A stretch of 64,000 nucleotides of DNA from an uncultured Bacilli bacterium (GTDB taxonomy: Bacteria > Bacillota_I > Bacilli_A > RF39 > UBA660), in assembly GCA_934130375.1 (NCBI GenBank), contig CAKOXW010000001.1:328067-392066 (forward strand), read 5' to 3'. Positions 704 to 48,496 of this stretch are shown here, in pieces; position 1 is the stretch's first letter, and each line of letters starts with the position of its first letter. Both the position numbers and the translations under genes were made by a program. The notes below the pieces were generated by a model. The model had not been told where the DNA came from and did not search any database. It worked only from the letters and a program-made list of their open reading frames with translations.

Positions 704-1849
704 TTATTCAAATTTTATAGTTGGATTTTCTTTTTCTTCTTTCTTTATTTCAAAAAATAATTCTTGTTTAAAACCAAATATACTTGCAATAATATTAGAT
801 GGGAAAATCTCTAAATTATTTTTATAATTAAGTACATTTTTATTATATATACTTCTTGATTTTGCTATACTATCTTCAATTTCACTTAAATCATCTTGTA
901 ACTTCATAAAGTTTTTATCAGCCTTTAATTCTGGATACTCTTCTTTAAGCATCATTATCTTAGATACTTCATTACCAAGTCTTTCATTCGCATCAATACT
1001 ATCTTTTTTACTTTCGGCATTTATTACTTCACTTCTTGCCTTAGTAATACTAGTAAGAGTATTTTTCTCATGCTTTGAATAACCTTTTACTGCAGATACT
1101 ACATTAGGAATTAAATCTGCTCTTTGTTTAAGTAATATATCAACACTACTCCAACTTTCTTTTACTTTATTTAACAATTTAGTAAGTCTATTAAATACTG
1201 ATATTATATAAAATAATGGTATTAAAATAATTATAAGACCAACTATTATCTTAGTAATACATTCACGAATTATTGCTTCCTTCTTAGAATTTCTATTATT
1301 AATTTCAACTATTTCACCTTGTTTTTTATCATTTAAACTCTTAATCTCATTACTCTTATTAGAATTAACACTTTGTTTTTCACTAGATTTCTTTCTATCA
1401 GTCTCAAATTCTTCTTCGCTTTTCTTACTTGTCAAAGAACCCTTTTCACTTTGTAAATTAGACCACTCATCACTTAATTCATAAAATTTCTTTGATAAAC
1501 CATTTCTATAAAACTCCTTGTTTTTAGCAACATTAACATTAATTATTTTCTTACTAATTTCACTTTCTAAATTCTTATACTTAGTATCGATATTTGAATA
1601 AATAGTTTCATAATTTTTATCTATTTCATCAAGTTTTACTTGATACTTATCATTAATATCTTTTTCTAAGTTTAAATATTTGTCATTTACTTCACTAATT
1701 AAACTAGATATTTCTTCACTAGTTAATTCCTTAGTCTTCTTAGTATCATTAATAGTTTTAAAATTAGGTACGATTACATAATAACAAGACAAAAATATAA
1801 TTAGACCATACATTAATACACTTAATATTATTGATATACTCTTTTTCAT
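704..1849 (-). CDS. LemA family protein with a long N-terminal TM plus coiled-coil extension
   Basis: The C-terminal half (LLKQRADLIPNVV...NFMKLQDDLSEIEDSIAKSR) matches the LemA family. There is an N-terminal TM helix, a long charged heptad-like region and a second TM helix. Confidence 0.6.
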   Translation of the reverse strand: MKKSISIILSVLMYGLIIFLSCYYVIVPNFKTINDTKKTKELTSEEISSLISEVNDKYLNLEKDINDKYQVKLDEIDKNYETIYSNIDTKYKNLESEISKKIINVNVAKNKEFYRNGLSKKFYELSDEWSNLQSEKGSLTSKKSEEEFETDRKKSSEKQSVNSNKSNEIKSLNDKKQGEIVEINNRNSKKEAIIRECITKIIVGLIIILIPLFYIISVFNRLTKLLNKVKESWSSVDILLKQRADLIPNVVSAVKGYSKHEKNTLTSITKARSEVINAESKKDSIDANERLGNEVSKIMMLKEEYPELKADKNFMKLQDDLSEIEDSIAKSRSIYNKNVLNYKNNLEIFPSNIIASIFGFKQELFFEIKKEEKENPTIKFE

Positions 1850-9206: not shown

Positions 9207-10985
9207 TTATCTTTTATTTCGGATTATTACAATACCAGAACCGCCTGATGTGGCAGCGTTATAATAACCTCCACCGCCTCCACCAGTATTTGCCTTTGCA
9301 GAACCACAACTTCCTCCATTACAAGATGCACCTCCACCGGCAGAAGGATTAAAGCTATCATAACCTGAAGTTCCACCTCCAGAATAAGCATAATCAGTAC
9401 CCTTTGTACAACTTGAGGTTGTTCCTTCACCAAATTCACAAGTTGTTGTTTTTTGTCCAGTGCCTGCTGCCCCCGCTTTGAAATCGCCGTAGCAATAATT
9501 ATTACAATTTCCAGAATTACCATAGGAGCCACCAGCACCGCAAACTCCTCCGCCTCCGGAACCACCAGAGCCACCATATGAACCGCTTCCAGAGTTTCCT
9601 CCTTGTGCTACATACGTTGTGGAATCTTTAAAGTATGATGCATCACCATTGCTTCCAGCTCCACCACCAGAGCCAACATTTACAGCATAACTTCCGGTAG
9701 ATATAACTTGACTTTTGTATGTTTTAGTATAGCCACCTCCGCCGCCTCCATTATCAGAGCCGCCGCCACCTCCACCTACTAAGAATATGTCAATCGACAT
9801 ACCTGTATTAAATTTAACAGTACCACTTGTTGTGAATTTTATTCTCCAATTACCACTGCCATCATTTAATAAAGTACAATTTCCACTATATTCAATATAA
9901 GGTGTTGCACCTGCGCTTGAATTTTTACATTTATAATTCTTAGACAAATCTTCATAAGTTATAAGTGTTTCTTTCCACTGAGCATAAATTGTTTGATTAC
10001 TTGTAATTTTTACAATAGTTGTTTCAGTTATCTTGCTTCCACCTGTTTTTGCAGTATACCATCCAAGAAAAGAATAACCTGCCCTTTGAGGTGTTGGAAG
10101 TGTACCATATTTAGCATTGTAAGTTACAGATTTTGAAGTCTCACTAACTGTTCCTCCATTTGCATTATATGTTACTGTATATTTCTTTGCAGTATAAATT
10201 GCTTTTATAGTTGTTTCCTCTGAACCAATTGTTATGGTATTACCACTTAAAATACTATTACCGCTTATTAATTCCCAACCTGAAAAATCATAACCTTCTT
10301 TTGTAGGAATATCAAGTGTTATAGATGTTCCTACTTTATAACTTCCTGCTTGATTATTACCAGTTCCTCCATCTAAATCTATATTCAATTTTTGTTCATT
10401 TAACTGATATAATGCCTTAATTTTCATGTTTTTAATACCTAATGTAAGTATATTATTATTAATACTACCATCACCATTTACAATTTCCCAACCTGAAAAA
10501 TCATAACCTTCTTTTGATGGTGATATTAATTCTAAAGTAGTATTTCTTTCATAACTACCTGCTTGATTATTACCAGTTCCTCCATCTAAATCTATAGTTA
10601 AACTAATATTAACAACTTTTCTACAATTAAGATCATCTTTTGTGCCTTCACATTTATAACCTTCTAATTTTCCACTTCCTACTAATACAATGTAAGGAAT
10701 ATGATTATTAAATGTTAAATCACAACTATTGTAATCAGTATCATTTAATTTAGATACATTTTCACAATTAATATTACTTGGATTTTCTAATACTTGATTT
10801 TCAGATTGTTTCTTTTCTGCAGAATCAAGCACTACTTTTGCTGAAGATGTTATTGTTCCTAACTTAGAATTATCTATTATATTAACAATTCTAGGTACTG
10901 CAATAACAAGAATAAACGCTAAAATAACTAATGACGCTAATAATTCTATTAAAGTAAAACCCTTTTTCTTTTTCATATTCTTCAC
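9207..10985 (-). CDS. Large type IV pilin-like protein with a class III prepilin signal, two or three Listeria-Bacteroides (Flg_new-type) repeats and a glycine-rich C-terminal domain
   Basis: The N-terminus is MKNMKKKKG/FTLIELLASLVILAFILVIAVP, with the prepilin cleavage site G/F and Glu at +5. IDLDGGTGNNQAGSY...EGYDFSGWE occurs twice, then YTVTYNANGG...GYSFLGWY. The C-terminal 200 aa has GGGGGGS.. runs resembling the Gly_rich family. Confidence 0.7.
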   Translation of the reverse strand: MKNMKKKKGFTLIELLASLVILAFILVIAVPRIVNIIDNSKLGTITSSAKVVLDSAEKKQSENQVLENPSNINCENVSKLNDTDYNSCDLTFNNHIPYIVLVGSGKLEGYKCEGTKDDLNCRKVVNISLTIDLDGGTGNNQAGSYERNTTLELISPSKEGYDFSGWEIVNGDGSINNNILTLGIKNMKIKALYQLNEQKLNIDLDGGTGNNQAGSYKVGTSITLDIPTKEGYDFSGWELISGNSILSGNTITIGSEETTIKAIYTAKKYTVTYNANGGTVSETSKSVTYNAKYGTLPTPQRAGYSFLGWYTAKTGGSKITETTIVKITSNQTIYAQWKETLITYEDLSKNYKCKNSSAGATPYIEYSGNCTLLNDGSGNWRIKFTTSGTVKFNTGMSIDIFLVGGGGGGSDNGGGGGGYTKTYKSQVISTGSYAVNVGSGGGAGSNGDASYFKDSTTYVAQGGNSGSGSYGGSGGSGGGGVCGAGGSYGNSGNCNNYCYGDFKAGAAGTGQKTTTCEFGEGTTSSCTKGTDYAYSGGGTSGYDSFNPSAGGGASCNGGSCGSAKANTGGGGGGYYNAATSGGSGIVIIRNKR

Positions 10986-45222: not shown

Positions 45223-46340
45223 TTATTCACAAGCATTAACAACAACATTACTTGGAAAACTATAATTACCATCTTCCATAATTGGATTACCTCTAAACGC
45301 ATTACAACCAAGCGTTATTGGTGTATCAGGAAATGTAATTGAAGTTATTTGATTATTTTCAAAAGCATTGATACCTATTTCGGTAATACTTGATGGTATT
45401 GTAATATTTGTTAATTCATTACCAAAAAACGCATTTCTATATATACTTGTTACTGTATTAGGTATCACTACCGAAGTTATTCCTAAACCCGAAATCGATA
45501 TGGAAAGTGGTTTAACCACGTAATTATTAGAATTATAACTTAATAAACTTACTTTATAATCATTATTATAAGCAGTAAGTGTTGGTATAATACCTCCTGT
45601 TGTAAATGCATTATCTCCAATAGTAACAACTGTCTTACCATCTACTTGTGATGGTATTACTACATCAGTTCCTCCAGCAATATTATAACCTGTTATTTTT
45701 ATACCTTCTGTTGCATCTACTTTTAATCCTATAGTTTCATAACTATAATCCTCTAGAGTTGAAACTTCAAGTGCTAAATCGTTAACAGTAAGAGTCTTAT
45801 TATTTATTGTTAGTGAACCCGTTGTACAAAAAGTATTGGCTTGTGCTTCAGTACAACCAACTGGATTTTGCATAAACGTTTTACATTTGTCTATATCTAC
45901 AATTTCAGCACTATGAATTATTGGTGTATCTTCATAACTAAAATACTTAGTAGCAGTTTCAGCAATTTCTTTCTTAGCACTTGCTTTGGCACTATCCTTA
46001 GTGCCATCTACTACTTGTAAACCTTCAAACTTACCTTTACCTACTATTGATACTTTTGCATTTCCCTTATCATCAAAAGTAATATTACAACTTTCATAAT
46101 CATTTGAATTTATCTTAGCAACATCACTACATTTTATTGTACTACTACCATCTAATACTTGATTTTCAGTATATTTCTTTTCAGCCTGACTTGCTATTAA
46201 CTTTGCAGTTGTTTCTAATGATGCCTCCTTAGAATTTTTAATTACATCACTTATTTTTGGCATTGCAATAATTAGTATAACTGCCAAAATAACTATTACT
46301 GCTAATAATTCTACTAAAGTAAAACCCTTCTTTTTCTTCA
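45223..46340 (-). CDS. Type IV pilin-like protein fused to BspA-type leucine-rich repeats (copy A)
   Basis: Start at MKKKKG/FTLVELLAVIVILAVILIIAMP (ATG 46340, RBS AGGAGGAG). C-terminal LRRs (TSVVIPNTVTSI..., ITIPSSITEIG..., ITSITFPDTPITLG). The ORF track's upstream start is unlikely. Confidence 0.7.
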
Positions 46341-46378
46341 TAATCTCCTCCTTATTATACAAGGTTATTATACTATAC

Positions 46379-46388
46379 ACCCCCCCCC
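46379..46388 (-). repeat. Homopolymeric tract (C10 on plus, G10 on the coding strand) in the promoter spacer of pilin-LRR copy A
   Basis: It lies between the -35-like TTGTCA (complement of 46392-46397) and TAGTAT/TATAAT -10-like elements, about 45 nt upstream of the RBS. Confidence 0.7.
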
Positions 46389-46786
46389 ATTTGACAATGG
46401 GCGAGGGCGTTTTTTAGGCCTATTTTTGACATATTTTTACACAAAATTTGATATTTTATACTAAAACGACCACTTTTTAACTAATTATTACGGGATTTTA
46501 CATGTATTCAAAATAATACTAAAATCCCGTATGTGATTGAAAATATAATTAAAATAGTTATTATGAATATGTGAAGAAAGTCTTAATAAAATATAAAAGA
46601 AACACTTAACCAGTAATTAGGTGTTGCTTTACAACAAAACTAATCCTTATGATTAGACATTTTTTATATTCTACTAAAGATAGTGAACTATAAATAATAG
46701 AAGAGTAAGCACTAATAGAAGAATTGTAAAATCCTTCACCATGCACATACCTCATTTCATTTTTATAAGAAGTAGGCAATCAATAA

Positions 46787-48058
46787 TTAACATGATTCAC
46801 CAATAACATTATTAGGAAAACTATAACTATCATCATTTATAATTGGATTATCTCTAAATGCATCACAACCAAGCATTATTGGTGTATCAGGAAATGTGAT
46901 TGAAGTTATTTGATTATTTCTAAATGCATAAGCACCTATCGAAATAACACTATTTGGAATTGTTACACTTGTTAATTGATTGCCACTAAAAGCATAGTCA
47001 CCTATTTTGGTAATACTTGATGGGATTTCCACATTTGTTAATTTGTTACCATAAAATGAATTTTCACCTATACTTGTTAAAGTACTTGGCATTACTACTG
47101 AAGTAATTCCTAGACCATCACCTGTATTACTATCATAAAATGCCTTATCTCCAATAGCAACAACTGCCTTACCATCTATTTGTGACGGTATTACTACATC
47201 TGTTCCTCCACCATTTTCGTATGTTATCTTCAATCCGGCATTCTCATAGTCACTTGATGGTATATCTCCTGAGATAACATCTTTTTGAATTGTATATCCA
47301 TCAACCTCACCTCTACTGCAATAATTATTTGATTGTTCCTCATCATAAGAAAAATTTGTTTGAACATAATTTTTGCACTTATTTTCATCTACTACTTCAA
47401 CATTACATATTGTTCCAATTTCAAATCCTGTTATTGAAATACCATCTATTGTTTCTACTTTTAATCCTGCTGTTTCATAGTCACTTGATTGTATTAAATT
47501 AAGTGATACTGTATCTTGTAAACTCGAACCATTAACTGCTTGATCAGTTGTACATAATGTTGTTACTTGTTCTTCGGTTAATTTAAATTTAGATTGAATA
47601 TAACTTGTACATTTAGCAGTGTCTTCGACAATAACATTAGATACTACAGGTATGTCTACATAACTAAAATACTTAGCCTCAGTTGAGCAATCACTAGTTA
47701 TAGATGCACTATTCTTACTTGCATTACATACAGCCATACCTTCAAACTTACCCTTTCCTACTATTGATACTTTTGCATTTCCCTTATCATCAAAAGTAAT
47801 ATTACAACTTTCATAATCATTTAAACTTATCTTAGCAACATCACTACATTTTATTGTACTACTACCATCTAATACTTGATTTTCAGTATATTTCTTTTCT
47901 GCTTGACTTGCTATTAACTTTGCAGTTGTTTCTAATGATGCTTCCTTAGAATTCTTAATTACATCACTTATCTTAGGCATTGCAATAATTAGTATAACAG
48001 CCAAAATAACTATTACTGCTAATAATTCAACTAAAGTAAAACCTCTCTTTTCCTTCAT
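46787..48058 (-). CDS. Type IV pilin-like protein fused to BspA-type leucine-rich repeats (copy B)
   Basis: The N-terminal 110 aa are about 95% identical to copy A. The central region is divergent and Cys-containing. LRR C-terminus. RBS GAGGAGGAA. Confidence 0.7.
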   Translation of the reverse strand: MKEKRGFTLVELLAVIVILAVILIIAMPKISDVIKNSKEASLETTAKLIASQAEKKYTENQVLDGSSTIKCSDVAKISLNDYESCNITFDDKGNAKVSIVGKGKFEGMAVCNASKNSASITSDCSTEAKYFSYVDIPVVSNVIVEDTAKCTSYIQSKFKLTEEQVTTLCTTDQAVNGSSLQDTVSLNLIQSSDYETAGLKVETIDGISITGFEIGTICNVEVVDENKCKNYVQTNFSYDEEQSNNYCSRGEVDGYTIQKDVISGDIPSSDYENAGLKITYENGGGTDVVIPSQIDGKAVVAIGDKAFYDSNTGDGLGITSVVMPSTLTSIGENSFYGNKLTNVEIPSSITKIGDYAFSGNQLTSVTIPNSVISIGAYAFRNNQITSITFPDTPIMLGCDAFRDNPIINDDSYSFPNNVIGESC

Positions 48059-48107
48059 AATTTCCTCCTCTATTATACAAGGTTATTATACTATACACCC
48101 CCCCCCA

Positions 48108-48116
48108 TTTGGCAAT
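48108..48116 (-). repeat. Homopolymeric tract (C9 on plus, G9 on the coding strand) in the promoter spacer of pilin-LRR copy B
   Basis: Same promoter context as copy A. The -35-like hexamer is TTGCCA here. Confidence 0.7.
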
Positions 48117-48220
48117 GGGAGAGGATGTAAATAGACATAACTTTACATGCAATTTGCAAATTAATATACAAATCTTATAATCTTTAACATATAAATTTAT
48201 AAAAATGTAATATAAACTAT

Positions 48221-48496
48221 TTAAGCCCACGAATACATAAAAAAGAAATAATCATTTTTAGTTTCCTTAATATTATATTTATCTACAAATGAAGAAGTAG
48301 AAATAGATACTATTAAATCTTCTAAGATATCAGACACTTCAAATCTTTTTAACATGGTTAGTATTTCTAATCTATTACTGATTATCTCTTTAATATCACT
48401 TTTAGAAAGATATAGATTTTTATCTTCTAAGTATTTATTTATTTCATATATTTTTTTATCATCCACAACCTTGTTATTCATTATTTCTTGTAACAT
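48221..48496 (-). CDS. Small hypothetical protein (91 aa)
   Basis: ORF only. Its 3' end overlaps the recurring intergenic motif. Confidence 0.25.
   Translation of the reverse strand: MLQEIMNNKVVDDKKIYEINKYLEDKNLYLSKSDIKEIISNRLEILTMLKRFEVSDILEDLIVSISTSSFVDKYNIKETKNDYFFFMYSWA

Follow-up and report, generated by a model that had tools for sequence, protein, structure and literature searches.

Homopolymeric G tracts between promoter-like hexamers of tandem pilin-LRR genes in an uncultured gut Bacillota: a candidate contingency locus

The window, by which we mean the whole 64-kb stretch of DNA analyzed here, has a GC content of 25.1% and carries most of its genes on the minus strand. Two of these genes lie in tandem, and each is preceded by a run of nine G residues on its coding strand:

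45223..46341, minus strand: gene A, whose 372-aa product is predicted to be a modular type IV pilin (prepilin leader at the N-terminus, BspA-type leucine-rich repeat (LRR) domain at the C-terminus)
46787..48058, minus strand: gene B, whose 423-aa product is likewise predicted to be a modular type IV pilin, with a prepilin leader ahead of a C-terminal BspA-type LRR domain
46380..46388, minus strand: G9 tract 5' of gene A (plus strand: C9)
48098..48106, minus strand: G9 tract 5' of gene B (plus strand: C9)
46021..46406, minus strand: first copy of a 387-nt repeat (95% identical), spanning gene A's promoter, its G tract and its initial ~107 codons
47738..48124, minus strand: second copy of the 387-nt repeat (95% identical), spanning gene B's promoter, its G tract and its initial ~107 codons

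The products of both genes begin with the signature of a class III signal peptide, namely a glycine at -1, a phenylalanine at +1 and a glutamate at +5 followed by a hydrophobic helix (gene A: MKKKKG/FTLVELLAVIVILAVILIIA, also given as MKKKKG/FTLVELLAVIVIL...; gene B: MKEKRG/FTLVELL...). Profile searches recovered the PF07963 family with scores of 32.3 and 29.4 bits for genes A and B respectively (cut-off 21.2) and the prepilin N-terminal methylation motif TIGR02532 with 27.9 and 28.0 bits (cut-off 16.3), while the BspA-type LRR family PF13306 scored above its cut-off in both. The closest solved structures are those of LRR cell-surface proteins (the best PDB matches of gene B by sequence being 4gt6, 4fs7 and TpLRR 6mlx), and the N-terminus weakly matches type IV pilins. 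On these sequence features the two genes are assigned as modular type IV pilins with an adhesin-like module, and by the leader, the LRR domain and the structural matches alike the genes behind the tracts are surface determinants. Surface proteins of the kind of prepilin-LRR adhesins are typical cargo of phase-variable systems. Gram-positive modular type IV pilins are exemplified by PilB and PilC of Streptococcus sanguinis, which likewise carry an adhesive module at the C-terminus, behind the prepilin leader and the pilin module; the genes in the window differ in that their adhesive module is a BspA-type LRR; to our knowledge, control by simple sequence repeats (SSRs) has not been described for the S. 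sanguinis pilins. The pilin-LRR family as a whole comprises more than 4000 proteins at E < 1e-5, nearly all from ENA gut metagenomes. A paper on TANB77 pilins (PMC11680825) was set aside as a precedent, as its subject is a Tad-type pilus cluster and not prepilin-LRR genes. None of the 20 window ORFs scanned against Pfam belonged to a type IV pilus machinery family. At 9207..10976, on the minus strand, the window encodes a third modular type IV pilin (589 aa), which combines a prepilin leader with Listeria-Bacteroides repeats and a Gly-rich domain; it has no G tract upstream, and its far upstream part resembles the upstream region of gene B (tgtattcttg..cttaaatagtttatat).

Proteins identical to those of the window are found on human gut metagenome contigs of the Hadza cohort and of other cohorts. 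Among the matches listed, the distant GTDB relatives are mostly labeled as Bacilli, with a few labeled as Clostridium sp. or Tenericutes, and are at most 59% identical over the pilin N-terminus. The host is a low-GC Bacillota, for which the class Clostridia named in the original prediction is tentative. GerA, GerAC, SpoVIF, Coat_F and ComK genes are present on contigs from related species; these sporulation and germination genes suggest that the host is a spore-former.

The two tracts are the sole G or C runs of at least 6 nt in the 64-kb window, both appearing as C9 on the plus strand, and no G run of at least 6 nt was found on the plus strand across it; at the composition of the window we estimate that ~0.005 C9 runs would be expected by chance. 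With nine G:C pairs at both promoters, they lie in the length range (7 to 8 or more) at which G:C homopolymers become prone to slippage. As both are inside the 95% identical 387-nt repeat, they have one origin and not two. The shared module can be written CCTC(G/T)CCC-A-TTG(T/C)CA-AAT-G9-TG-TATAGTATAAT-AACCTTGTATAATA(G)AGGAGGA(G/A)ATT-ATG, with the G9 tract lying 38-47 nt upstream of the ATG. The original prediction of two homopolymers upstream of the paralogues thus stands as to their presence, with amended details: the supposed G10 at 46379..46388 is the G9 at 46380..46388, the gene B tract has the predicted length of nine but was placed 10 nt off, at 48108..48116 instead of 48098..48106, and the difference of 10 versus 9 G between the copies was a miscount. 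Likewise, the tract is not ~45 nt before the ribosome-binding site; its 5' end is 47 nt ahead of the ATG and its 3' end 26 nt ahead of the Shine-Dalgarno (SD) sequence.

The promoter-like elements flanking the tracts are as follows:

46392..46397, minus strand: -35-like TTGTCA of gene A, with AAT between the hexamer and the tract
48110..48115, minus strand: -35-like TTGCCA of gene B
46375..46370, minus strand: TAGTAT, gene A
48093..48088, minus strand: TAGTAT, gene B
46372..46367, minus strand: TATAAT, gene A
48090..48085, minus strand: TATAAT, gene B
46367..46377, minus strand: composite -10 block TATAGTATAAT of gene A, with overlapping TATAGT, TAGTAT and TATAAT
48085..48095, minus strand: composite -10 block TATAGTATAAT of gene B

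The TTG(T/C)CA and TAGTAT/TATAAT hexamers around the tract agree with the original description. A promoter scan recovered them as TTGTCA-16-TAGTAT and TTGCCA-16-TAGTAT, each with a consensus score of 9/12. The scanned region contained 32 promoter-like sites against 34 expected from shuffled sequences: in this AT-rich DNA the match of the hexamers is at chance level and by itself proves nothing. The TATAGTATAAT block is invariant in all ten of the aligned family promoters (10/10). On related contigs, the gene downstream of a homologous pilin next to gatB has a TTGAAT, a 17-nt spacer and a TATAAT inside the same block; because this neighboring gene uses the block in that way, TATAAT is most likely the working -10 in preference to TAGTAT. 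The distances from the -35-like hexamer to TATAAT in the window and in the homologous promoters discussed below are:

window, G9: 19 nt
window type with G8: 18 nt
window type with G7: 17 nt
GGGAGG alleles: 16 to 17 nt
L130 (G6): 18 nt
P0063 (GGGAGGGGG): 19 nt

The spacer to TAGTAT is 3 nt shorter than that to TATAAT, giving 16, 15 and 14 nt for G9, G8 and G7. The tract lies between the promoter-like hexamers, as had been proposed, while the spacer at G9 is more likely 19 nt (to TATAAT) than 16 nt (to TAGTAT); the predicted contrast of 16 versus 15 nt between the copies falls away, both having 16 nt to TAGTAT and 19 nt to TATAAT. Were TAGTAT used as the -10, the optimum would be at G9 to G10. 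With either -10, the observed tract lengths fall in the range where one base is predicted to alter promoter geometry. Which length would be 'on' is ambiguous from these geometries, as the interrupted GGGAGGGGG (L163) keeps 9 nt and GGGAGG gives 16 to 17 nt to TATAAT.

The reading that we favor, with somewhat better than even confidence, is that of a promoter-spacer contingency locus driving adhesin genes. The hexamers would be parts of a working promoter of the sigma-A type, one for each of the tandem pilin-LRR genes, in which a hypermutable G tract would occupy most of the spacer between the -35-like hexamer and TATAGTATAAT. Slipped-strand mispairing at replication would add or remove G residues and thereby shift the spacer length, and, if expression depends on that length, the shift would move the transcription of each adhesin up or down in a heritable and reversible manner, independently of its neighbor.

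The region upstream of the -35 adds a further element, a pyrimidine-rich arm that can pair with the tract:

46399..46409, minus strand: C-rich arm CGCCCTCGCCC of gene A, able to pair with the G tract across the -35 hexamer
48117..48127, minus strand: C/T-rich arm CATCCTCTCCC of gene B, able to pair with the G tract

Together, arm, -35 and tract make up an inverted repeat that is imperfect (CCCATTG-N-CAAATGGG, with C/T:G pairs extending it), raising the alternative of a static promoter or operator element, in which the repeat would be bound by a dimeric regulator or would shape the DNA, being kept for its sequence, with the length differences as neutral drift. We regard this as unlikely. Folded as DNA, arm and tract reach -12.4 kcal/mol (z = -3.2) for gene A and -10.5 kcal/mol (z = -3.6) for gene B, i.e. 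better than shuffled sequences, and a pyrimidine-rich arm directly upstream of the -35 is present in all ten family promoters despite differing in sequence, as such an element would have it. Against it, RNAalifold on the ten promoters kept five arm-tract pairs with zero covariation or compensatory changes, the palindrome is lost in L130, L152 and L173 while promoter and gene are intact, and an operator does not need a pure homopolymer. The arm itself may serve as an operator-like inverted repeat or as a hairpin that promotes slippage, or it may be a coincidence; its presence in every family member hints at a second function that would be independent of tract length.

The pairing potential also bears on a different, RNA-level role, in which transcription would start further upstream and the tract would pair with a C/U-rich arm in the 5' leader, acting as an anti-anti-SD with respect to GGAGG, or else undergo reiterative transcription as at pyrG of Bacillus subtilis. 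The C/U-rich arm (CCUCUCCC or CCCUCGCCC) is indeed able to pair with the tract or with the SD region. There is, on the other side, no promoter-like site at a fitting distance upstream, the invariant TATAGTATAAT 3' of the tract is best read as a -10, and no U run follows the hairpin in the window. Rfam returned no match at E up to 1 in 46200..48400 and, at the gathering score, one tRNA as the sole match of the whole window. With zero covariation in the alignment, a structured RNA is not supported. A scan for intrinsic terminators or attenuators found none at the tracts, the tract hairpin being followed on the sense strand by GTATAG. With these points against it, we hold an RNA-level role to be very improbable.

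Two further features of the intergenic regions may be recorded. On the plus strand, the tract/loop/arm hairpin of gene A is followed by a T6 at 46410..46415 and has the look of a terminator antisense to the pilin (region 46399..46415); the gene B copy is without the T run. Between the gene B stop and the gene A promoter, at 46490..46530, lies an 11-bp inverted repeat (ACGGGATTTTA ... TAAAATCCCGT), which by its position may be the gene B terminator, though the scan gave no call and no clear T run follows.

Promoters homologous to those of the window were found ahead of pilin-LRR genes at several loci that are unlinked to it or belong to other species:

next to gatB: P0022, G9 in 3 assemblies
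next to gatB: P0016, G8
next to gatB: P0008 and P0012, GGGAGG
next to nusB: P0098, G9 in 5 assemblies and G8 in 1
next to the OGG gene: P0080, G9 in 2 assemblies
syntenic with gene A in another species: L179, G9
next to der: P0063, GGGAGGGGG
human gut contig: L130, G6

The presence of pure tracts beside interrupted alleles is a pattern familiar from contingency loci, which the alleles listed here resemble. The GGGAGGGGG allele keeps exactly 9 nt, a point that sides with the static element. These promoters also bear on a third alternative, namely that the tract is a fixed relic carried along by the 387-nt duplication and that the differences in its length are sequencing or assembly artefacts. 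In a genome of 25% GC such a relic would be expected to erode, yet the tract is retained from species to species, and the homologous promoters of different species have lengths of 6, 8 and 9. The exact promoter pattern with a variable G tract had 0 matches in the JGI metagenome contigs; a looser pattern gave 62 matches there, L130 alone being a relative, and the rest were dismissed as chance or as an unrelated palindromic promoter motif. The latter, of the form TTGACA..ACTATA-GGGGGG-TATAGTATAAT, is seen in L091, L101, L112, L116, L117, L124, L131, L138, L145 and others, which are environmental and unrelated to the window.

Length differences were found between assemblies that are otherwise identical or nearly so, with 7, 8 and 9 G at three loci between conserved flanks, the lengths being partly linked to haplotype and all read from consensus contigs of short-read metagenomes, some with 8 to 19x coverage by their contig names. 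The claim of a one-G polymorphism, mistaken for the two copies in the window, hence holds among other assemblies of the same species. The tract of gene B is G9 in 6 samples and G8 in 6, and that of gene A is G9 in 7 samples and G7 in one (L162). The 2.4 kb upstream of gene B resolve into four SNP haplotypes with zero indels, of which H1 and H2 have G9 and H3 and H4 have G8, and within a haplotype the consensus length is constant across 3 to 5 independent hosts each. Under the four-point condition applied to the distances, one change on an internal branch would account for most of the G8/G9 split at gene B. As length follows haplotype, rapid switching is not demonstrated; the association speaks either against switching at a very high rate or for strong selection acting on tract length. 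This stability within haplotypes across hosts likewise speaks for a static element.

Changes that appear to be more recent are three in number. L006 is identical to the window over 4.3 kb yet has G8 at gene B, making it the exception to the haplotype rule, with its tract 6 nt from the contig end; the G7 of L162 at gene A lies 48 nt from the contig end; and at the nusB locus L160 has G8 where L156 and L159 have G9, with 0 substitutions in 4.55 kb and the tract in the interior of the contig. The last of these is, on the assembled sequence, the cleanest case of a recent change; the six nusB-locus contigs contain one further 1-nt indel only (T6/T7). L002, which is 99.5% identical to the window, differs from it by 33 substitutions over 7.1 kb and by one indel only, that in the gene B tract. 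As a control, the 8.8 kb compared contain ten A/T runs of 7 or 8, all shorter than G9, and none of them varied.

The explanation by artefact draws on the origin of these data in short-read consensus contigs of partly low depth (8 to 19x) and on the position of the L006 and L162 variants near contig ends, so that two of the three recent changes might be consensus homopolymer miscalls. The G8 of gene B, in contrast, recurs in six independent samples from three studies and two assemblers on H3 and H4 (L006 excepted), which is unlike random error, and the L160 variant is inside its contig. Together with the persistence of the tract across species, these observations make the combination of artefact and relic improbable in our judgment, and the lengths would instead have arisen by slippage in vivo. 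Contig breaks near the tracts were rejected as a sign of heterogeneity, since the repeated 5' block (longest exact shared stretch 73 nt) and strain mixtures also break contigs.

We also surveyed more distant pilins, covering 458 kb around 94 pilin gene starts in GTDB species genomes. The survey recovered 8 G runs of at least 9 nt, where we estimate ~0.03 G9 runs to be expected at that composition, and no C run of at least 7 nt in the 458 kb. Six of the eight long G runs precede a pilin start by 35 to 130 nt, in contexts unlike that of the window, and G runs of 6 to 8 occur within 150 nt upstream at none of the 94 starts. The tracts of these pilins are G9 to G11 and always on the coding strand. 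Judged from these genomes, the group thus recurrently has, and apparently maintains, long G tracts 5' of its pilin genes. The occurrence of G9 to G11 in very different flanks counts against a static element and points to the homopolymer itself as the selected feature. The coding-strand orientation was rejected as an indication of an RNA role, the coding strand being so strongly skewed to G over C that composition alone favors G runs.

In three of the distant cases, from GTDB Bacilli MAGs (L074 2943..2951, L068 1864..1873 and L085 2938..2947), other pilin genes have a G9 to G10 tract at a distance of 46 to 120 nt upstream, in the context TTAGC.ATTTGT[AG]AAC, G tract, CCCC/CCTC/ACCC and T6 to T7, which looks like a hairpin with a T run and not like a promoter spacer; this terminator- or attenuator-like arrangement is the further point on the side of an RNA-level role. 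In L044 (4761..4771), a G11 preceded by TTGACA lies 37 nt upstream of the gene for a 625-aa non-pilin with an N-terminal membrane helix, and by this example the G-tract habit may extend to other surface proteins.

Taken with the original prediction of slipped-strand phase variation, a slippage-prone tract in the spacer, lengths of 7, 8 and 9 among assemblies and homologous promoters elsewhere partly support the proposal of a contingency locus, while the 10-versus-9 comparison drops out of its grounds. Repeat-driven promoter switches are textbook cases in Neisseria, Haemophilus, Bordetella, Campylobacter and Mycoplasma, and phase variation in the gut has been documented mainly for invertible promoters (Bacteroides, Clostridioides) and epigenetic switches. 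By analogy, the closest counterparts of the window would be the fim genes of Bordetella, porA and opc of Neisseria and vlp of Mycoplasma. The fim2, fim3, fimX and fimN genes of Bordetella pertussis and B. bronchiseptica have a poly-C tract in the promoter. They resemble the genes in the window, as interpreted here, in being paralogous filament-subunit genes, each of which has a G:C homopolymer separating its -10 from an upstream promoter or activator site, so that each paralogue is able to switch alone via changes in spacing. They differ in that their tracts are of ~13 to 15 C, their transcription depends on the activator BvgA, their fimbriae are of the chaperone-usher type and not type IV pilins, and their switching has been shown experimentally whereas that of the window is inferred. 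Neisseria meningitidis porA (poly-G) and opc (poly-C) have promoter-spacer tracts. In these, as is proposed here, a G:C run (~9 to 14) lies between the -35 and the -10 of a surface-protein gene, its length setting high, intermediate or no transcription (a volume control). Neisseria is, unlike the present organism, a Gram-negative pathogen with a well-defined phase-variable set and measured switching rates and expression effects, against an uncultured gut Bacillota with polymorphism at the consensus level only.

The vlp lipoprotein genes of Mycoplasma hyorhinis have a poly-A tract in the promoter spacer. Their organism is low-GC and Bacillota-related, and they are likewise tandem surface paralogues with conserved 5' regions and a homopolymer in each promoter, an arrangement that would allow combinatorial expression; the tract is poly-A and not poly-G, and the products are lipoproteins and not pilins. 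The history of SSRs and of phase variation in Mycoplasma is treated in a review (PMC11868660), which cites Rosengarten and Wise. For pilins of uncultured gut Bacillota, we found no description of repeat-driven promoter switches in the literature searched. If the tracts switch, members of a pilin-LRR family of this size would be under stochastic control, which would matter for strain-level colonization and IgA evasion and would affect the reading of metagenomic 'strain' variants and of contig breaks at pilin-LRR loci. Public read sets already exist for the compared samples and would show directly any heterogeneity in tract length.

The pilin locus is otherwise hypervariable between strains, which we count in favor of a contingency locus. 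In L167 and L170 a single chimeric gene joins the promoter and first codons of gene B to a gene A-like body, in L169 an unrelated 154-aa pilin lies behind the same promoter and leader, and in L180 and L185 the pilin gene is absent between the flanking genes. Such plasticity, as reconstructed from the contigs, fits diversifying selection on a surface structure. It also fits a broader and rather doubtful proposal, namely that the C-rich arm, -35, G tract, TATAGTATAAT, SD and prepilin leader may together be a portable expression site across a clade of uncultured spore-forming low-GC gut Bacillota. Slippage may then set adhesin expression, while recombination in the 387-nt 5' block may swap, fuse or delete adhesin bodies, the two jointly diversifying pilus-tip adhesins. 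The combination would resemble that of Mycoplasma vlp switching with Neisseria pilE/pilS recombination, in commensals.

The surroundings of the related pilins yield some minor observations. At the gatB-adjacent paralogue in three species (L152, L155 and L173), the pilin-LRR gene is followed by a conserved gene for a 165-aa protein and then by one for a 672-aa GGDEF protein, a gene order that hints at a possible link of the pilin to c-di-GMP; in L173 a ComK gene lies 4 kb upstream of this pilin. At the nusB locus, a 684-nt insertion or deletion distinguishes strains at a DUF1016/YhcG-like gene (L156..L160, ~800..1800); L157 and L158 have this gene at full length, and L156, L159 and L160 have a truncated form.
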